DNA of 64,000 bases from Escherichia phage vB_EcoM_G4498. The stretch lies in the sequence record NC_054918.1, one strand, 5' to 3'. The position numbers and the translations under genes were made by a program. This document shows positions 1,949 through 60,758 of the stretch, in pieces (position 1 is the first letter of the stretch; every line of letters starts with the position of its first letter). The notes beneath the pieces are model-generated. The model saw only the letters and a list, made by a program, of their open reading frames with translations. It ran no database searches and was not told where the DNA came from.

Positions 1949-2307
1949 TTTAATTTCCTGCAATCACTCACAAACTCTTTCATTGATTCATTTTCAATAT
2001 AAGACATGTAGCTATTATATTCTTTTAATTGTATTTTGTAATATTTTTTTCTTTGCCAATTTATTTTAAAATTATCATAATGAAAATATAACATGGTACC
2101 AAAGAATGAAAATAATGAAATAATTTTAGTATAGTGAAGTTCACTCCAAACTTCTGTTATATTTACTGTGCCGTCGATGTTTAAAATAAGACAGTCAATT
2201 AACAATCCAAAAAGACTACCCGCAAGAGCTGCAGCCAACGCCACAGCAAAAATTAAAAATGACTCAGGAAGCGAATATTTGACTTTATTTAGTTTTGGCT
2301 TTTGCAT
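1945..2307 (-). CDS. Small membrane protein (hypothetical)
   Basis: 120 aa ORF with ATG and AAGGAA RBS; hydrophobic segment LIFAVALAAALAGSLFGLLI. Confidence 0.55.
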
Positions 2308-2681
2308 CGTGATTCCTTAACAAATTTCATAATTTCATTAAATTCATACTCAGCAAGTTTAATCTGGTGTTCCTTTTTAATCTTTTTACACTGTGCTTTC
2401 CAATCACGTACGCGTTTACGATAATGCCTTCCTTGATACCAGTATCCTACCCAATTTATAGGTACTAATAAAAATGGAACTATTAATGGAAGAATTAGCA
2501 TTAACACAAGTATTTCGCCAGAATCAATATCAGTCATAACATCTAAAACACCTCCAATAATCAATAGAATTACAAATGATATAAGTATAACAGGACCTAT
2601 TAATACATCAGTAGAAATTATCTGACGCTTTAATTCATACTTCAACGGTTTACTTGGAAGGTATAGTGATGGTTTTGACAT
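2289..2681 (-). CDS. Small membrane protein (hypothetical), about 130 aa
   Basis: track start at 2702 is TTG; first ATG at 2679-2681; two hydrophobic helices; overlaps neighbours. Confidence 0.5.
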   Translation of the reverse strand: MSKPSLYLPSKPLKYELKRQIISTDVLIGPVILISFVILLIIGGVLDVMTDIDSGEILVLMLILPLIVPFLLVPINWVGYWYQGRHYRKRVRDWKAQCKKIKKEHQIKLAEYEFNEIMKFVKESRCKSQN

Positions 2682-3258
2682 ATTCTCTACATTCCTTAAC
2701 AAATTTTTCTAGTAATAAATCACTTTCAAAATTAGGATTTTCCACTAATTTATCAAAAAGATCATCAACAATATTCAAGATATTTCTTTTACTAAGAATA
2801 CGTTTATTTTCATGCTTCGTTTCAGAATCAACTATAAGAGTAAAGAAATATTTCTTTCCCTGAAATTTTACTGTAGTATCAATATAGAATAAATTTGACT
2901 TTTGTAAGTTACGTTTAAACCATGCGTCACTTAAACTATAAACACCGAGATAATCAAAATCGTCGTTTAAATAACAAACTGTCCATTCAGGAGAAATGAA
3001 ATCAGTAAATTCAACATCAAAATCGCATGTCAATGAATAAATTGATTCAATACTGTTAATAAGTATTCCAGGACGTATTAAAGACTTTTTACCTCTGGAA
3101 AATCTTCCAGAAAGGCTTTCGTCTGTTTCATATGAAGAACCCCAATAATAATTACGTCCTTCTGCCATGCGTTTAAGAGCATTTAGCAATTGGTCTGGAA
3201 CATCAACCTGTCTTTGGAACTCTTCAAACATTGAATTGAAATCACTTTGCATTTTCAT
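2650..3258 (-). CDS. Hypothetical early protein, 202 aa
   Basis: long ORF in the minus-strand early gene series between e and the tRNA cluster. Confidence 0.6.
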   Translation of the reverse strand: MKMQSDFNSMFEEFQRQVDVPDQLLNALKRMAEGRNYYWGSSYETDESLSGRFSRGKKSLIRPGILINSIESIYSLTCDFDVEFTDFISPEWTVCYLNDDFDYLGVYSLSDAWFKRNLQKSNLFYIDTTVKFQGKKYFFTLIVDSETKHENKRILSKRNILNIVDDLFDKLVENPNFESDLLLEKFVKECREYVKTITIPSK

Positions 3259-3278
3259 TCCTATTTACTCCAAGTAAT

Positions 3279-3296
3279 AGGGGCCTAAGCCCCTTA
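3279..3296 (-). terminator. GC-rich stem-loop (AGGGGC-CTAA-GCCCCT)
   Basis: inverted repeat just downstream of the 3300..3893 stop; no strong U-tract. Confidence 0.35.
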
Positions 3297-3299
3297 TCA

Positions 3300-3893
3300 T
3301 TATTTCAGAGAATTAATGTATTCCTGAACATCGGCAGAGGTAGTTTCAACCCCAGAAATATTACCATTAAAGGTTTCAACTCGAGCAAGAGTATCTTCAA
3401 TATCAACCTTAGTCAGCGCTGCAATTTCAACTACATCATCAGCAGTACTAATTCCAAGGGCATTTGCTGCACGAGTTTCACGGATATATTCCAATTTAAC
3501 TGCAAGTTCTTGGCGAGCATCATCTAACTCAACTACTTTCTTGGCGATTTCAATTCGCATTTCAGCATAACCATCAGCTTTAGTAGTCAACTGTTCAGCT
3601 GTTCGACGATATAGCAAACCAAGTTTAGCATGCATTGTTACATCTTGACCTTCAGAAAGAAGCTTGCGAATTTCACGCTCTTTTGATTCGGCCTGCTTAT
3701 TCTTTTCGACAATAAGTTCACGAATACGCTTTTCTTCATTAATAGATTTAACAGAAGCAGTTTTTAGATCTTTAATCTTATCAAGTAGTTTTGCTGCCGC
3801 AGCAGTATACTGTTCTTCAACGGATAAATTTTTAGCCATAGCAGAACCAAGTTTAGTGCGAATAAACTCAACAATTTTCTTCAGTGTGTTCAT
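3300..3893 (-). CDS. Hypothetical coiled-coil protein, 197 aa
   Basis: long ORF with charged heptad-like K/E/R-rich composition; family assignment not possible by eye. Confidence 0.65.
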
Positions 3894-3936
3894 AGTATTT
3901 CCTTAGGTTAATTAAGATTTAAAATCCATAAGAGTA

Positions 3937-4101
3937 TTATTTGTAAACTATTTCAACATCGCCTTTTGCTGCTTTATAACCTTCAGCCCAAGATACAACC
4001 GAGTTTTTATCCGAAGATTCAAATTCTGGCATTGGGCTTTCGCCAATGTTCACGCAGTATGTTTCTTCATTTTCGTCAAACCAAATAATTAAAGTAGTCA
4101 T
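3937..4101 (-). CDS. Small hypothetical protein, 54 aa (not in supplied track)
   Basis: my rc translation MTTLIIWFDENEETYCVNIGESPMPEFESSDKNSVVSWAEGYKAAKGDVEIVYK; GGAG RBS before ATG 4099-4101. Confidence 0.4.
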   Translation of the reverse strand: MTTLIIWFDENEETYCVNIGESPMPEFESSDKNSVVSWAEGYKAAKGDVEIVYK

Positions 4102-4137
4102 TTATTTCTCCGTTTCTGTATTTGTTTTGATAAGTCT

Positions 4138-4165
4138 ATAATAACACCGTCCTTGGTGTTTGTAC
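4138..4165 (-). promoter_or_regulatory. Degenerate early promoter/leader cassette copy
   Basis: TATTAT -10 and weak -35 (GTACAA); shares the TTTGTTTTGATA leader with other copies. Confidence 0.25.
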
Positions 4166-4169
4166 ACAA

Positions 4170-4445
4170 TTATTTCATATTATTGAAATATTCTTCTGCG
4201 ATTTCATCGTTATCATGGTAAACTTTAGAAGACAGTTTAACATAACCTTCAGCAGTGAACATGTTAATCACAACCTTTACAGTATACCACTGACCATCTT
4301 CATTACCCATTACTGCGTAAGTTTCAAACATCGGATGATCAGGACCGATAACTTTAATATCATTCACTGTACGACCGAAATCTTCTGAAACACATTTCAT
4401 AAAGAAGTTGAACAGTTCACCGTAATTATCCATTTTATTCTCCAA
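4170..4445 (-). CDS. Hypothetical early protein, 91 aa
   Basis: ORF immediately downstream of an early promoter copy. Confidence 0.6.
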   Translation of the reverse strand: MENKMDNYGELFNFFMKCVSEDFGRTVNDIKVIGPDHPMFETYAVMGNEDGQWYTVKVVINMFTAEGYVKLSSKVYHDNDEIAEEYFNNMK

Positions 4446-4476
4446 GTTGTTTTCTGTATCAGTAGTTGATATTGAT

Positions 4477-4506
4477 ATAGTACCATAGAAGAACAGGGAT
4501 GTAAAC
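4477..4506 (-). promoter_or_regulatory. T4 early-type promoter (GTTTAC, 18 nt spacer, TACTAT)
   Basis: minus strand GTTTAC (4501-4506) and TACTAT (4477-4482), 32 nt upstream of the ATG at 4445. Confidence 0.5.
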
Positions 4507-4626
4507 AGTTTTGTGAAAAATTTTTAGGGAATTTTAGGGCGGGGAGGGGCAATTAAAAGGTAGGATAATATATTATAAAGGATATAAACTAAATGATGCC
4601 TAGAGAGGCCCGGAAAGGCCTAGATA

Positions 4627-4653
4627 CCAAAAAGCCCTATCATTTAGATAGGG
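4627..4653 (-). terminator. Intrinsic terminator (7-bp stem CCCTATC/GATAGGG plus U-run on minus strand)
   Basis: perfect inverted repeat 4635-4653 followed on the minus strand by CTTTTT, just downstream of the 4662 stop. Confidence 0.5.
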
Positions 4654-4661
4654 ATTTAAAA

Positions 4662-5225
4662 TTATTTACATAGTTTAGTTATTATAGCTTCTGCAGCAGC
4701 TTTTAGCTTAGATGCGGTGTTAATACGATTTTTAATTTCAGTATATGCATCGCCAAGAACATCAAGGCTATCAGAATAAACACTTACACTATTGCGTTCG
4801 CTATTTGAAATAGAACCTTTAGTTTTACGATCAAAATCGGTATACACGTCTTGAAGATCGCGGGCTGCCTTCTTTGCATCATCCAATGCATCAAGAGCTT
4901 TATTCAAAGCATTGACATATTTTTTAGTGTCAAACATATTCTTAGAAATTTTAACAGGTGCACGTTCAGGAGTAGCTAATGCAGATTTAGAAACCTGAGC
5001 GCCAGATGCCAATTTCTTAGAAATTTTGAAAAATGCTTTATTGAAACTATTTTCTTGGCTCATCGTAAAAGAACTGTTATCGATGTTATACATTTCAATA
5101 GCTTTAGCTTTCCACTTAAGAAAATCGCCCCGGTCTTTTGGGTCCAAGTGGAAGAATACTTTAGTAAGATCTGCTTCAGATGGTAATTTTGCTGCTTCAG
5201 TTAAAAATTCGGCATAGGTTTTCAT
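4662..5225 (-). CDS. Internal protein-like (capsid-targeted), 187 aa
   Basis: ATG start; N-terminus MKTYAEFLTEA matches the CTS motif; own terminator downstream. Confidence 0.7.
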   Translation of the reverse strand: MKTYAEFLTEAAKLPSEADLTKVFFHLDPKDRGDFLKWKAKAIEMYNIDNSSFTMSQENSFNKAFFKISKKLASGAQVSKSALATPERAPVKISKNMFDTKKYVNALNKALDALDDAKKAARDLQDVYTDFDRKTKGSISNSERNSVSVYSDSLDVLGDAYTEIKNRINTASKLKAAAEAIITKLCK

Positions 5226-56028: not shown

Positions 56029-56032
56029 CAAT

Positions 56033-56058
56033 GGGGACCTTTCGGTCCCCATATTTTT
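56033..56058. terminator. Bidirectional terminator between gene 54 (+) and the Alt operon (-)
   Basis: GGGGACC-TTTC-GGTCCCC hairpin flanked by T-runs. Confidence 0.7.
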
Positions 56059-56347
56059 ATTTACGGAATGAAATGAAAGCAGCAACTGAAGCAACTAAAC
56101 TGTCTTCAATATAAACTTCAATTTTTACCGGAGCTTCTGACTCAAATTTACCTGTTACTACACCCTGAAAAATACTTTCAGTCTGTTCTGGCTTTGAAAA
56201 ATTTTCAGAAGGAAAAATTCCGAACTTTTTATCTGTTCCAAAAATTTTGATAAATTCATCGTAAACTGCTTCATTAAAAGCATTATCAGCAGGAATAACG
56301 CCTTCAACTACAAGTTCTTGACCTAAAAAGCGCAAAGAAGATTTCAT
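56057..56347 (-). CDS. Hypothetical protein, 96 aa, downstream of the Alt paralogs
   Basis: ORF co-oriented with alt. Confidence 0.6.
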   Translation of the reverse strand: MKSSLRFLGQELVVEGVIPADNAFNEAVYDEFIKIFGTDKKFGIFPSENFSKPEQTESIFQGVVTGKFESEAPVKIEVYIEDSLVASVAAFISFRK

Positions 56348-56407
56348 TTTGTGTTCCTCATGTTATGTCAGTAAGACTACTATAACACAACACGAGGGAC
56401 TTGTAAA

Positions 56408-58465
56408 CTACATCTTGAACTTTTTAGACATTCCGTTGATGTTAACCAAAGAAGCTAAGATTTGAGAAACTTCGTTTTCCTCTTCTTTTGATTCTTCTAC
56501 AAGGAATTGATTAAATCCAGCCATTGGACGAACTTCACCAGTTTCCATTAGATGGTCGCCATCATATACTGATTCTTCTAATTGTTCAGAAGGAGGAACG
56601 ATTGTACCTTCGATTAGATACTTGTTATAAGCAGTTTCTTTCATAAAGTAAGTACTTACTTTATTAATCTTCAGTAAAATTCCACGTGGTAGAATAACTT
56701 CAGCTTCTGACGGAAATCCTGATAAATGACCCGGAACGATAACTTTGATTCGCTCAGCTCCTTTAATTACCATACCCACGCTAGTTTCAGCATCTTCATT
56801 AGCATATGTAGAATGACTACCCATATGCATCAAATCTTCTGCATCAACGGAACCTTCTCCTTCACCAGAAAATACTGCGCCGGAATCATCTAGAGCCATA
56901 TAGTTTTTACCATGCTCACCGAAGATATTTGGTTTAAGCGATGTGGATACGAAGTTCTTGAAATAGAACATTTTATTTTCAATGTTATGACGCAAAGTTT
57001 TAAAGGTAACTTCTTGTCCACGGTAAAGTGTAGTTCCTGGAGGAAGAACTGAACCTTTAGCGAATGCAGAATCAAGCGTCTCAATATGTTTAATAGCTCG
57101 TTCCATATATTCTTCACGGGTAGAATCTGGTTTACCCAAAAGGAACGAGTTCATTTCAACATATGAATCTGCACAATAATCTTCAATTACATCAGATTCA
57201 GCTTGAGTTAATCCTTTTGGAGTTACTTCAGTGCTTGCGTATTCATATGCCTGAGCAGCAGATTCATTAATCAATTTATAAATGCCATTCATGACAAATT
57301 GAATAATAGCTGTCTTTTCATCTGGCGTAGCTTTAGAACCTTTAACCAAATCATTGATAATTTTCTTAATAACATCAAAGCTATTAGAAATATTAATATC
57401 AGCAAGATCGCTTAAAATTTTATCAGTCTTATAATCAAAGAATTCTTTATTCTTTAAATATTCTTGAGAACCTTGATATGTTATATCGCTCTGTAACTTG
57501 ATAGATGGATCACGTAAACGTGCATGGGCTAATGCAATATGATTTCGGAAGCTTTCGAGTTCATAATCACTAGATTTAAAACGAGAAGCGCTTCTCATAC
57601 CGCCTATAGCTCCTTTGCTGAAGTTTGAACCAATTTGAATAACGCCAGAGTTCATTGGTCCTTCTGCTTTATACACCGGAACTTTAGATTCAAACTCTTG
57701 ATATTTCTTAGCAGCGAAGCTATCACCCTGAAGTGAAGCATCAACAGTAGAATATTGAGCTTGTGCTGCTAATCGACGACTAATTTTAGTTTTCTGAATA
57801 ACAGCTTGGTCCGTGCGCTTATCATTTTCTAAAGCAATAGAAGCAGCAACAGCAACAGCTTTAGGAACAGCATTACCTGTTTTAACATCTACATAAACAT
57901 CACCAACCTTTGATTCAACTTTTGTGAATAACTCAGTTGAAATAGGAGGTACACCTGGAATGTCTTCTAAATTGGCATTTTTACGATAAACCATAATATA
58001 TGCGTACTTTTTATCATAATCCCAGATTTCCTTTAAAAGAACATATCGACCTGCTCCTTTAGTACGTACTAAACGGTCAGCAATAACTTGCATTTGACGA
58101 GCAGCGCCATTTGTTTTACTCTTTAGTACGCGGAATAAGCATGCATCAATTTTATACTGTTTCATTGTTTGAAGAGCAGTATCAAAAACAGCGTTAATGA
58201 CGCCAATTGGATTTCCACCCAAGTTTCTAAGTTTAACCAGTGATAATTTCTCGTTGACACCTATCATTACGATATGCATCATTTTATCGCCCGGCTTAAC
58301 GTTTTTATTTGTATCACCTCCAGAGGTGTATGTACAAAATCTAAATCCAGGAAGCACGCTTTCTTCGCCGGCTTGAATAGCAAAAATTTGAGGTATTTTA
58401 TGCTTAGGATTTAAGTTAACAACCGGCGCCGAAGCGCCGTCAAATAATTCTGTAATAAGTTCCAT
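56408..58465 (-). CDS. Alt-like ADP-ribosyltransferase paralog, 685 aa
   Basis: shares N-terminal MELITELFD and overall length with the adjacent Alt; R-S-E signature (TLYRGQ, FVSTSL, SEAEVILP). Confidence 0.85.
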   Translation of the reverse strand: MELITELFDGASAPVVNLNPKHKIPQIFAIQAGEESVLPGFRFCTYTSGGDTNKNVKPGDKMMHIVMIGVNEKLSLVKLRNLGGNPIGVINAVFDTALQTMKQYKIDACLFRVLKSKTNGAARQMQVIADRLVRTKGAGRYVLLKEIWDYDKKYAYIMVYRKNANLEDIPGVPPISTELFTKVESKVGDVYVDVKTGNAVPKAVAVAASIALENDKRTDQAVIQKTKISRRLAAQAQYSTVDASLQGDSFAAKKYQEFESKVPVYKAEGPMNSGVIQIGSNFSKGAIGGMRSASRFKSSDYELESFRNHIALAHARLRDPSIKLQSDITYQGSQEYLKNKEFFDYKTDKILSDLADINISNSFDVIKKIINDLVKGSKATPDEKTAIIQFVMNGIYKLINESAAQAYEYASTEVTPKGLTQAESDVIEDYCADSYVEMNSFLLGKPDSTREEYMERAIKHIETLDSAFAKGSVLPPGTTLYRGQEVTFKTLRHNIENKMFYFKNFVSTSLKPNIFGEHGKNYMALDDSGAVFSGEGEGSVDAEDLMHMGSHSTYANEDAETSVGMVIKGAERIKVIVPGHLSGFPSEAEVILPRGILLKINKVSTYFMKETAYNKYLIEGTIVPPSEQLEESVYDGDHLMETGEVRPMAGFNQFLVEESKEEENEVSQILASLVNINGMSKKFKM

Positions 58466-58468
58466 GAT

Positions 58469-60517
58469 TTATCCTTGAACGAACTTGTAAGGCATGTTTG
58501 TAATATCTATGCAAGACGCAATAATTCCAAGAGATGATTCTACTTTCTGTTTAACATTTGATGAAACAAATGATGCAAAGTCAACTCTATCTTCTATATC
58601 ACCTGTCATTGTAACTACTTCGCCGGTTTCCATTAAACGGTCACCGTCATAAATTACTGATTCGGTGAGTTCTTCGGTGGTCATAACTTCAGCTTGAATA
58701 AGCTTGTTGTTAGTTTTGACTGTTCCATCATTGTAAGATGCATCAGTTATTTTATTAACTTTGACCATTAATCCACGTGGCAAAATGACTTCCATTTCAT
58801 TTGAAGGCGCTAAACTTCCACCGGGTAAAACAACATTGACTTTATCAGCCCCAGTAATAACCCATCCAATTCCGACTAAATTATCGCTAGAATTAACAAG
58901 CCCTTCATCATTTTTATCGATAGAAATGTTTAGACGCTTTTCATCTGGTAAAACACCAACAGCTGAATCAGTCATCCAAGTACCAAAAATGTTTGGATAT
59001 AATGATGTTGATACAAAATTTCTAAAATAAAAAACTCGATTTTTTACCATTGCTTCGTATATTGAAGGTAACATTCGTTGTGAACGATACAAAGTAATAC
59101 CTTTTGGTAATCGTTCACCATTTTTAAAGGCTGAATCTAAATTATCAATAGCTTTTTCTATGTCAGATGCTGTCAAAATACTTGTACGCTCATCTGGATT
59201 ATATAATCCCAAAAGAGCATTATTTATGTCTACATATCCTGAACCTACGTATTCACGAATTCCGCGTTTTTGTGCTGGTGTGTATTTAGATGAATCTTTA
59301 TTTTCGACTATAGGATGTAATGACCATCCAGCTGTAAGAGCATATCCACGTAATTCTCTTCGAATAATCTTTGTTTTTATTGCATTCCAAGAATTTTGTA
59401 CTAACTCATTTGCAGCATCTTGGTTTAAATGCGAATGTTTGTTAATATTTCTTTCAAACCAAGCACCTTTATATTTTTCTAAAGTATCATCGACGATAGA
59501 AGCAATAGTTTCTAAAGTTTTTATTGAAGTAATAGATTCTTTTCGTAATTTTTCTAAAGCTTTATTTTTTATTTCTGCATTAATAATGGATTCTTTATCT
59601 TCAGGAATTATAGAAGCTTCTCTGAATGCCATCCCAGCTGTAACACTGCTAAGAGCATTCTCTAGTGCAAATCCTGAAGTAGAAATTACCGTTAATTCAT
59701 TAGAATCAGAAATTAAAGGCGCATCAGCGGGTTTATTTAATTCTGCTGCTGAAGCCTCAAATTTTTGAAACATCGGTGTTTCAAATCTAGAAGATTCCAA
59801 TGACTGACTTTGTGCAATTGCTCTACGGGAAATTTTAACTTTAACGATTACAGCTTGGTCAGAACGTTTATCATTTTCTTGTGCAATAGATGCTGCAATT
59901 GCCTCATTTTTGGTTACTTGAGCTCCGGTATCTTTATTGATATAAACATCACCGACCTTCGATTCAACTTTAGTAAAGAGCTCGGTACTAATTTCCGGAA
60001 CTCCTGGAATGTCTTCTAGTGATACATTTTTGCGATGTATAAGAATATATGCATACTTTTTATCATAATCCCAGAGTTCCTTAAGAAGGACGTATCTGCC
60101 ACCTGAACGACTACGGATAAGTCTATCAGCAATAACTTGAATTTGTCGAGCTTGACCAGCGGTTTTAGACTTAAGAATACGAAGCATACAAGCATCAATT
60201 TTATACTGACGCATTGTTTGCATTGCAACAGTAAAAACTGAATTGATATAATTAATTGGGCTTGGACCAAGACCTTTTAATTTAGCAATTGAACCTTTAG
60301 CGGTTAATGTAAAAGGAACAATATGCATCATTTTATCGCCCATTTTTAAATCGCGATTAGTATCACCTCCAGATGTATAGGTACATAAACGAAAGCCTGG
60401 TTGTTCAATTGCATCATCAACATGAACTGAAAAAATTTGCGGTATTTTCTTCTTTGGATTTAAGTTTGTAATCGGAAGAGTAGTATCTTCGTCAAATAAT
60501 TCTGTAATAAGTTCCAT
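58469..60517 (-). CDS. alt: Alt ADP-ribosyltransferase (capsid-packaged), 682 aa
   Basis: R-S-E signature (TLYRSQ, FVSTSL, NEMEVILP); late promoter upstream; second ATG chosen for RBS spacing. Confidence 0.88.
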   Translation of the reverse strand: MELITELFDEDTTLPITNLNPKKKIPQIFSVHVDDAIEQPGFRLCTYTSGGDTNRDLKMGDKMMHIVPFTLTAKGSIAKLKGLGPSPINYINSVFTVAMQTMRQYKIDACMLRILKSKTAGQARQIQVIADRLIRSRSGGRYVLLKELWDYDKKYAYILIHRKNVSLEDIPGVPEISTELFTKVESKVGDVYINKDTGAQVTKNEAIAASIAQENDKRSDQAVIVKVKISRRAIAQSQSLESSRFETPMFQKFEASAAELNKPADAPLISDSNELTVISTSGFALENALSSVTAGMAFREASIIPEDKESIINAEIKNKALEKLRKESITSIKTLETIASIVDDTLEKYKGAWFERNINKHSHLNQDAANELVQNSWNAIKTKIIRRELRGYALTAGWSLHPIVENKDSSKYTPAQKRGIREYVGSGYVDINNALLGLYNPDERTSILTASDIEKAIDNLDSAFKNGERLPKGITLYRSQRMLPSIYEAMVKNRVFYFRNFVSTSLYPNIFGTWMTDSAVGVLPDEKRLNISIDKNDEGLVNSSDNLVGIGWVITGADKVNVVLPGGSLAPSNEMEVILPRGLMVKVNKITDASYNDGTVKTNNKLIQAEVMTTEELTESVIYDGDRLMETGEVVTMTGDIEDRVDFASFVSSNVKQKVESSLGIIASCIDITNMPYKFVQG

Positions 60518-60540
60518 CATAGCCTCTCTAGTGTTTATTC

Positions 60541-60548
60541 TATTTATA
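60541..60548 (-). promoter_or_regulatory. T4 late promoter TATAAATA on minus strand (alt)
   Basis: plus-strand TATTTATA about 21 nt upstream of the alt ATG. Confidence 0.6.
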
Positions 60549-60553
60549 AAATT

Positions 60554-60571
60554 AAAGGCCCGAAGGCCTTT
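60554..60571 (-). terminator. Hairpin (AAGGCC-CGAA-GGCCTT) ending the upstream early transcript
   Basis: perfect inverted repeat overlapping the stop of the 60570..60758 ORF. Confidence 0.5.
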
Positions 60572-60758
60572 AGTAATCTAGTGGTAAGAGAGTACGATAT
60601 ATTTCAAACTTTGGTCCTTTTTCATAGGCATCAAATGTTTCTGTAAATTTATTATAAGCGTATGCATCTACAAATTCGAGAATGACTTGTGATACAGAAG
60701 TAGAAACATCTCCACCTTCTTTTTGAGCAATGACAATTGTTTCTAAGTAAGCTTTCAT
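60570..60758 (-). CDS. Hypothetical small protein, 62 aa
   Basis: ORF with ATGA overlap to the ligase stop. Confidence 0.6.
   Translation of the reverse strand: MKAYLETIVIAQKEGGDVSTSVSQVILEFVDAYAYNKFTETFDAYEKGPKFEIYRTLLPLDY

Follow-up and report, generated by a model that had tools for sequence, protein, structure and literature searches.

Two Alt-type genes in tandem

The window analyzed here is a stretch of 64,000 nucleotides (nt) from Escherichia phage vB_EcoM_G4498 (NC_054918.1), a Tequatrovirus, and our subject is a pair of adjoining genes within it that encode Alt-type ADP-ribosyltransferases (ARTs). The upstream gene, alt (58469-60517, minus strand), encodes 682 amino acids (aa) and matches PF03496 and phrog_802. 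The second copy, which we label Alt2 (56408-58465, minus strand), encodes 685 aa and adjoins alt downstream. Both copies sit between ligase/alt.1 on one side and alt.-3/gene 54 on the other, behind one late promoter motif. The interval 55900-60900 matches 532 phage records and is 100% identical to phages FL08, G4500, G29, and ESCO58. The gene pair is already known, in that RefSeq names both products "Alt-like RNA polymerase ADP-ribosyltransferase."

The resemblance of Alt and Alt2 is true homology and not chance. The proteins align over their full length at 41% identity (BLASTP, E = 5e-162), and both match phrog_802, the family of Alt-like RNA polymerase ADP-ribosyltransferases, from end to end (854 and 872 bits). 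Both score above the 23.4-bit cut-off of PF03496 (ADPrib_exo_Tox), Alt at 125 bits and Alt2 at 71.9 bits, and both carry the Tevenvirinae_ADPRT module PF26846 at the N terminus by precomputed assignment. An earlier, sequence-only reading of the window had proposed two tandem, divergent Alt-type genes with intact catalytic signatures of the Arg/Ser-Thr-Ser/Glu-x-Glu (R-S-E) type, and the coordinates, BLASTP, PF03496, and an alignment of 19 sequences covering both paralog classes bear it out. The Arg, FVSTSL, and ExE motifs that it quoted are all present in both translations, by which we verified motifs and coordinates alike. In Alt, the active site comprises LYRSQ with R478 (59084-59086), STS at residues 503 to 505 (59003-59011), and EME at 574 to 576 (58790-58798). 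In Alt2, it comprises LYRGQ with R482 (57020-57022), STS at 507 to 509 (56939-56947), and EAE at 587 to 589 (56699-56707). FVSTSL occurs in Alt and Alt2 alike, and the catalytic Arg, Ser-Thr-Ser, and Glu-x-Glu align in both copies. The loss of catalytic residues from one copy, raised earlier as a possibility, was not seen: R482, S507, S509, E587, and E589 are invariant in the 19-sequence alignment. As for the common termini that had been reported, MELITELFD is indeed the identical start of both proteins, nine residues long, while DGDHLMETGEV is found in Alt2 only and Alt reads DGDRLMETGEV. T4 Alt itself has the H form.

The start of alt is ambiguous at 60517-60520, where the sequence reads ATGATG. 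RefSeq takes the second ATG, giving 682 aa, and the program that listed open reading frames (ORFs) begins one codon earlier, at 60520, giving 683 aa that start MMELITE. A published "E577A" mutant and a published "7-residue propeptide" are numbered in agreement with the first ATG, and another paper has six residues removed from Alt, at ITE-6. If counting starts at the upstream ATG, "E577A" would be the second Glu of EME.

Pairwise alignment with T4 Alt (gpAlt, NP_049811), which had been proposed as a check, separates the two copies. The window Alt is identical to T4 Alt at 672 of 682 residues (99%), and by this measure alt is the ortholog of T4 alt. Alt2 is 41% identical to T4 Alt, and its middle and ART regions fall in a separate clade. 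By the same comparison, Alt2 does not qualify as an ortholog of T4 Alt, the modifier of Arg265 in RNA polymerase alpha.

Alt2 can be divided into four parts, all on the minus strand. The N-terminal module (aa 1-235; 57761-58465) corresponds to PF26846 and includes a motif for cleavage by gp21, ITE-6, at 58448-58456. The middle region (aa 236-410; 57236-57760) is specific to the paralog class and is predicted to be all helical in an AlphaFold2 (AF2) model. The ART domain (aa 411-631; 56573-57235) contains R482, STS, and EAE and ends at a second gp21 motif, LEE-631. Finally, the predicted C-terminal propeptide (aa 632-685 plus the stop codon; 56408-56572) holds YDGDxLMETGE...F..F...KF, which is invariant in the family, and aligns with the 63 residues that gp21 cuts from T4 Alt after LTE-619 (PMC5694885). 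The propeptide residues proper lie at 56411-56572 for Alt2 (aa 632-685) and at 58472-58660 for Alt (aa 620-682). We note that this segment, though gp21 removes it from T4 Alt, is among the most conserved stretches of the family in certain of its residues, namely, YDGDxLMETGE, two Phe, and the terminal K-F. Targeting, tethering, and auto-inhibition are among the possibilities for its conservation.

A sequence search of the PDB found no match for Alt2 and, for Alt, only CdtA (E = 0.008). Because Alt2 had no such match, the active-site comparison was made with an AF2 model and Foldseek. In the model (predicted local distance difference test [pLDDT] score, 74.7), the C-terminal domain of Alt2 is predicted to adopt the R-S-E ART fold, and Foldseek with that model gave Vis toxin, Certhrax, C3, CDTa, and VIP2 as the best solved matches. 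There were 66 hits at E ≤ 0.001, with E values down to 1.9e-7 and a target template modeling (TM) score of about 0.6.

The remnant in T4 and the states of the locus

The sequence-only reading had left undecided whether T4 carries an Alt-like paralog at this position, and the answer is that T4 carries a remnant alone. Between alt and alt.-3, T4 encodes only alt.-1 (61 aa, NP_049810) and alt.-2 (67 aa, NP_049809). The left piece of this 421-bp T4 segment has 93% DNA identity to the opening 351 nt of the Alt2 region, which comprise 3 nt ahead of the gene and its initial 348 nt, and the right piece has 97% DNA identity to the last 78 nt. Between the pieces, T4 has lost 1,699 bp by a deletion with 9-bp direct repeats, CTAAAGAGT and CTAAAAAGT, at its ends, and a 1-nt deletion in an A-run shifts the frame and splits the remainder into alt.-1 and alt.-2. 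Moreover, with the PHROG families of alt.-1 and alt.-2 (phrog_23015 and phrog_15247), Alt2 reaches 138 and 129 bits and Alt only 78 and 70 bits. DNA identity on both sides of the deletion and the PHROG scores thus indicate that T4 carries a deletion remnant of Alt2 and not a partial duplication of alt, whereas the T4 record presents alt.-1 and alt.-2 as having arisen long ago by duplication of the first part of alt. We conclude from this collinearity that Alt2 is the intact counterpart of alt.-1 and alt.-2 and, by the same sequence comparison, that intact Alt2 is ancestral and the deletion occurred in the T4 lineage. Since only a remnant lies at the T4 position, Alt2 is not an ortholog of a characterized T4 gene. 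We note that the T6 record describes its intact 685-aa gene as "hypothetical protein; apparent insertion in alt.-2," a T4-centered description that reverses the direction of the event. We did not find alt.-1 and alt.-2 described as a microhomology deletion of a conserved gene in the searchable literature.

Alt2 is widespread. By tblastn, it is present at full length and at least 80% identity in 401 phage records, including those of T2, RB7, wV7, PP01, and ime09, and about 395 records have an intact ORF at ≥95% identity. Both copies were confirmed directly in T2 and in T6, where Alt2 occupies positions 2302 to 4359 of our T6 extract (L017). The T4 deletion was counted with a 120-nt probe centered on the junction. 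Of 496 records, 91 matched this probe over its entire length, and in the rest its halves lay apart. The 421-bp remnant was dropped as a probe for the T4 type because 83% of it lies left of the junction, which confounds the count. Thus, the two-gene state is found in roughly four-fifths of sequenced Tequatroviruses and the single deletion event of T4 in about 18%.

A third state of the locus occurs in phages ECML-134 and SCS4 and Yersinia phage PST, in which alt.1 and alt.-3 enclose a single gene whose 5' end is of the Alt type and continues in frame into the body of Alt2. The chimera lies at positions 3001 to 5061 of both the ECML-134 extract (L014), taken from a complete isolate genome, and the PST extract (L015), where it is annotated simply as "alt." The canonical Alt effector is wholly absent from these three phages, all of which have been cultured and are viable. 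Four metagenome contigs (L010 to L013) carry the same type of chimera with crossovers at about nt 150, 300, 540, and 660, all four inside the homologous N-terminal region. Chimeras were first met in these contigs and might have been assembly artifacts, but that explanation was rejected, as the same architecture is present in the complete genomes of the isolates ECML-134, SCS4, and PST. The chimeric isolates indicate that the Alt2 effector can be the sole effector of the Alt family.

Copy number varies further among relatives. One Alt-family copy is found in the Mosigvirus MM02, between alt.1 and alt.-3, and in Klebsiella phage K65, two in the Tequatroviruses (the window phage, T2, and T6), and two in the Moonvirus CF1. 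The second CF1 copy (5001-7123 of L004) is annotated as two coding sequences (CDS), which overlap, such that a frameshift or a sequencing error is possible. The Dhakavirus QL01 has three tandem full-length copies (864-7124 of L003), and copy C reads S-A-S instead of S-T-S. Aeromonas phage 31, a Biquartavirus, has two copies and a partial copy, and the Krischvirus KFS-EC has one Alt and a short stand-alone ART (7053-7877 of L008).

Selection and modular history

Alt2 is under strong purifying selection. By Nei-Gojobori counts, synonymous and nonsynonymous differences in the ART domain number 23 versus 1 against ECML-134, 23 versus 2 against PST, and 39 versus 6 against P0003. The ratio of nonsynonymous to synonymous divergence (dN/dS) against these three phages is 0.011 to 0.036 in the ART domain and 0.03 to 0.05 in the middle region. 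Over the whole gene, Alt2 and its T2 counterpart differ by 61 synonymous and 5 nonsynonymous changes, at a dS of 0.15, which is similar to that of the flanking genes gp54 (0.18) and alt.-3 (0.09).

The first copy is polymorphic. T2 Alt (697 aa; 904-2997 of L016) matches the window Alt over residues 1 to 246 except for one residue and is close to identical again over the final ~95, whereas residues ~247 to 575 are strongly diverged. Indeed, the dS between the two genes is 0.06 in the N-terminal segment, 1.17 in the middle segment, and 0.37 in the C-terminal segment. First-copy cassettes are of the T4 type (682 aa) in about 174 records and of the T2 type (697 aa) in about 320, and the two types are about 70% identical. 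Alt2 is more uniform across records than the first copy.

A phylogeny of the whole length was abandoned because deep nodes had bootstrap values of 16 to 50 and the signal was mosaic, and trees were built per domain instead. The tree of the N-terminal module groups sequences by phage lineage: the window Alt and Alt2 fall together with a bootstrap value of 100%, and the three QL01 copies fall together with MM02 at 98%. The trees of the middle region and the ART domain group sequences by paralog class. There, Alt2 falls with QL01 copy C and JS10 (98 to 100%) and with copy B of the Moonvirus CF1 (80 to 89%), and Alt falls with QL01 copy A and MM02 (82 to 100%). Pairwise identities show the same regional pattern, as Alt and Alt2 are 68% identical in the N-terminal module, 12% identical in the middle region, and 37% identical in the ART domain, and the middle region of Alt2 is 47% identical to that of QL01 copy C. 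Active-site surroundings also differ by class. A conserved F/Y before Glu-x-Glu and a distinct acidic insert after STS mark the Alt2 class, and the Alt class has neither.

The similarity of the two N-terminal modules reflects constraint at the protein level. Between Alt and Alt2, dN is 0.28 in the N-terminal module versus 0.73 to 0.93 elsewhere, whereas synonymous sites are saturated in every region (dS of 1.2 to 1.7). Recent gene conversion between the window copies was considered and rejected on these dS values: saturation means that the pair is ancient and that no recent conversion has taken place in this genome. By its position in the trees, the Alt2 effector class predates the split of Tequatrovirus, Dhakavirus, and Moonvirus. 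The pattern of the locus is one of conserved delivery ends around exchangeable effector cores, in which recombination within the ends yields swaps, fusions, and deletions. Neither the three natural states of the locus nor its domain-wise mosaic history was found in the searchable literature.

A broader interpretation is that the alt locus is a polymorphic-effector array, in which a lineage-specific scaffold for head delivery (the N-terminal module and the C-terminal propeptide) carries exchangeable cassettes and Alt2 has host targets of its own. We hold this interpretation tentatively, as possible but short of probable. The cassettes of such an array may include T4-type Alt, T2-type Alt, Alt2, and further classes in other genera, and the targets of Alt2 would possibly be a component of defense or translation rather than RNA polymerase. 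If the array interpretation is true, the three-enzyme picture of takeover drawn from T4 is incomplete for about 80% of Tequatroviruses.

Proposed expression, delivery, and role of Alt2

Expression signals around the pair suggest a single late unit. A T4-type late promoter motif, TATAAATA, lies at 60541-60548 (minus strand), about 20 nt upstream of alt. The motif has 23 matches in the window versus 9.4 expected, and the match at 60541-60548 is the only one between 49771 and 64000, with none other near alt or Alt2. The stop codon of alt and the start codon of Alt2 are separated by a 3-nt gap (58466-58468), and a Shine-Dalgarno sequence for Alt2, AAGGA (58472-58476, minus strand), falls within the last codons of alt, where the sequence reads ...GTTCAAGGATAAATCATGG.... 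A generic scan for sigma-70 promoters returned 19 sites versus 18.7 expected, which is chance level.

The flanks contain further signals and genes. Between alt.1 and the late promoter of alt is a terminator-like GC hairpin (60553-60572, minus strand), where a terminator is annotated in phage G4507. The gene alt.1 itself (60570-60758, minus strand) encodes 62 aa, matches PF24647 ("Phage_blade") at 101.9 bits, and is kept upstream of the array in all relatives examined. Between the Alt2 stop codon and alt.-3 is an early-type promoter, (G)TTTACA-17-TATAGT (56379-56407, minus strand), with 10 of 12 matches and a TG extension, and its -35 element resembles the T4 early consensus GTTTAC (PMC1524935). 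The gene alt.-3 (56057-56347, minus strand; 96 aa, DUF5498) matches PF17602 at 215 bits, flanks the array outside the ART pair, and occupies the same position in T4, T2, T6, QL01, CF1, and MM02. In T4, mutations that lengthen the C terminus of Alt.-3 confer escape from the defense system CmdTAC, the toxin of which is an mRNA ADP-ribosyltransferase (PMC11618068). Finally, gene 54 and alt.-3 are separated by a bidirectional terminator hairpin (56031-56052), also annotated as a terminator in G4507, at which the alt transcription unit ends.

What is known of T4 Alt provides the framework for Alt2. T4 Alt resides in the scaffolding core of the prohead at a published number of about 40 copies per head, and gp21 cuts it after ITE-6 and LTE-619 to give a mature protein of 68.2 kDa (PMC5694885). 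Ejected together with the DNA, the enzyme ADP-ribosylates host proteins, RNA polymerase alpha among them (PMC5512222, PMC10468400, PMC9503650), and the "E577A" mutant, in which a catalytic Glu is changed, is inactive (PMC11404850). The sequence-only reading had also credited Alt with RNAylation of host proteins, which is inaccurate, as efficient RNAylation is the work of ModB, and Alt in vitro only "slightly RNAylates" RNA polymerase, an activity abolished by 10 equivalents of NAD (PMC10468400).

We propose that Alt2 is probably a second head-packaged, injected, arginine-specific ADP-ribosyltransferase, likely with partly different host targets. Sequence features, homology, selection, distribution, and history were observed directly, and from them we infer each biochemical step for Alt2. 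Late transcription of both genes would start at the one TATAAATA promoter, which precedes alt, and Alt2 would have a Shine-Dalgarno sequence of its own for translation from a start codon 3 nt past the alt stop codon. The shared N-terminal module would bring both proteins into the scaffolding core of the prohead, where gp21 would trim each after ITE-6 and after a C-terminal (L/I)-x-E motif, LTE-619 in Alt and LEE-631 in Alt2. Both would then enter the next host along with the ejected DNA, and each would consume NAD+ to mono-ADP-ribosylate arginines of host proteins. Arginine specificity is predicted from the Glu-x-Glu form of the R-S-E active site. The Alt-like N-terminal module, both gp21 motifs, the propeptide, and the promoter layout make an Alt2 that is made late, packaged, processed, and injected the best-supported model. 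Both gp21 motifs are recognizable in Alt2, as ITE-6 and as an (L/I)-x-E|S site in which LEE-631 aligns with LTE-619 and the P1 Glu, E631, is invariant. Moreover, the mass that we compute for mature Alt (residues 7 to 619) is the published 68.2 kDa (PMC5694885), and the predicted mass of mature Alt2 is 69.1 kDa.

The host proteins modified by Alt2 most likely differ in part from the Alt targets, because the middle region and ART domain of Alt2 belong to a separate, old paralog class, and distinct target sets for Alt and Alt2 are plausible by sequence. In C3/iota-type toxins, loops around the active site contribute to substrate recognition. By analogy, the class-specific loops of Alt2 may be a lead toward distinct targets.

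Several observations weigh against the proposal. Late cotranscription of alt and Alt2 is suggested by motif matches alone, and the PF03496 score of Alt2 is the lower of the two (72 versus 125 bits). The confidence of the AF2 model is moderate, and residues 516 to 540, the insert between STS and Glu-x-Glu, and residues 629 to 663 are unmodeled. In the searchable literature, we found no activity assay of Alt2, no virion proteomics of two-copy phages, no list of Alt2 targets, and no usable account of ADP-ribosylation in T2 or T6. Finally, 91 isolates, including T4, do well without Alt2, and Alt itself is nonessential. Thus, the function of Alt2 is dispensable in at least some hosts and could be redundant.

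Redundancy would mean that Alt2 is active and packaged but modifies the same targets as Alt, for example, Arg265 of RNA polymerase alpha, and serves for dosage or as a backup copy. Viable isolates that lack either effector (the 91 of the T4 type without Alt2, and ECML-134 and PST without the Alt effector) fit this explanation, as does the presence in both copies of the same catalytic residues, with the Glu-x-Glu typical of arginine-specific enzymes. Redundant enzymes, however, would not be expected to persist as two effector classes kept separate across genera, each under purifying selection, nor to be only 12% identical in the middle region with active-site loops that differ by class. Moreover, the saturated dS indicates an ancient pair and not a recent duplication for dosage. 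We consider redundancy unlikely on this evidence.

Two further explanations remove Alt2 from the injected set, and both seem to us improbable, the latter to the point of near dismissal. Alt2 might be made late but neither packaged nor injected, acting in the producing cell as the T4 Mod enzymes do, or it might be expressed early from a promoter inside alt. No virion proteomic evidence of Alt2 appears in the searchable literature, and sigma-70-like matches do lie inside alt (58758-58730 and 59232-59203, minus strand), albeit at chance frequency. An unpackaged protein, however, would have no obvious use for the MELITE propeptide and the invariant Glu of the C-terminal cleavage site, both of which Alt2 keeps along with the whole, strongly constrained N-terminal module, and in ECML-134 and PST the N terminus of Alt leads straight into the Alt2 body, in the position that alt normally occupies. 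The other explanation is that Alt2 is catalytically dead or decaying and is either a pseudo-enzyme or a part of the head core with a structural role only. Decay of this gene in T4 has left alt.-1 and alt.-2, the CF1 ortholog is split into two CDS, and the Pfam score of Alt2 is below that of Alt, but decay is hard to reconcile with an ORF that is intact in about 395 records, as given above, and with a predicted fold that matches active toxins. Invariant catalytic residues, the low dN/dS of the ART domain, the ART fold, and the chimeric isolates together make a strong case against a decaying or inactive Alt2.

T4 is the reference for takeover of Escherichia coli by phage ADP-ribosyltransferases, of which the field counts three: Alt, ModA, and ModB. 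T4 is nonetheless the atypical case, as T2, T6, and about four-fifths of sequenced Tequatroviruses keep Alt2, and a few phages carry the Alt2 effector alone. If Alt2 has its own targets, then two-copy phages, T4-type deletions, and chimeras are a ready natural experiment, and comparison of isolates could separate the roles of injected ADP-ribosyltransferases in early takeover or defense evasion.

Duplication of alt has been reported before. Nolan et al. (2006) counted among the paralogs of alt both alt.-1/alt.-2 and a full-length duplication in phage 44RR (PMC1524935), and Jin et al. (2014) reported alt duplications in Ac42, JS98, and Bp7 (PMC4177764). A 2026 paper described a Tequatrovirus with two paralogous Alt-like proteins that are 43% identical and suggested functional divergence (PMC13600099).

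Alt2 can be compared with several known systems. With T4 Alt, it shares length, locus, predicted late transcription unit, and a four-part layout of Tevenvirinae_ADPRT module, helical middle, R-S-E ART domain, and C-terminal propeptide, as well as the MELITE propeptide and the (L/I)-x-E motif at the C-terminal end. Alt2 differs from T4 Alt in its overall sequence (41% identity), in its active-site loops, and in belonging to a clade common to other genera. The third copy of the Dhakaviruses QL01 and JS10 and the second copy of the Moonviruses CF1 and KM16 are 47 to 58% identical to Alt2 in the middle and ART regions (bootstrap values of 80 to 100%) and, like Alt2, occupy the last slot of the array, adjoining alt.-3. 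Their N-terminal modules follow their own lineage instead, with 42 to 44% identity to those of the window and 67 to 89% identity among the QL01 copies. Beyond phages, the C3, VIP2, iota-CDTa, Vis, and Certhrax toxins resemble the Alt2 model in catalytic fold and in the predicted arrangement of Arg, Ser-Thr-Ser, and Glu-x-Glu. ModA and ModB are short, single-domain proteins. They belong to the same Alt/VIP2 R-S-E clade as Alt (PMC5512222, PMC9503650) but, unlike Alt, are products of early genes that are made in the infected cell and not packaged (PMC10468400, PMC9503650). Finally, alt.-1 and alt.-2 of T4 share lineage and position with Alt2 and differ in that the T4 gene was destroyed by deletion and frameshift. 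Alt2 is very probably, to judge from its sequence, a functional fourth ADP-ribosyltransferase of the T-even phages that T4 lost.

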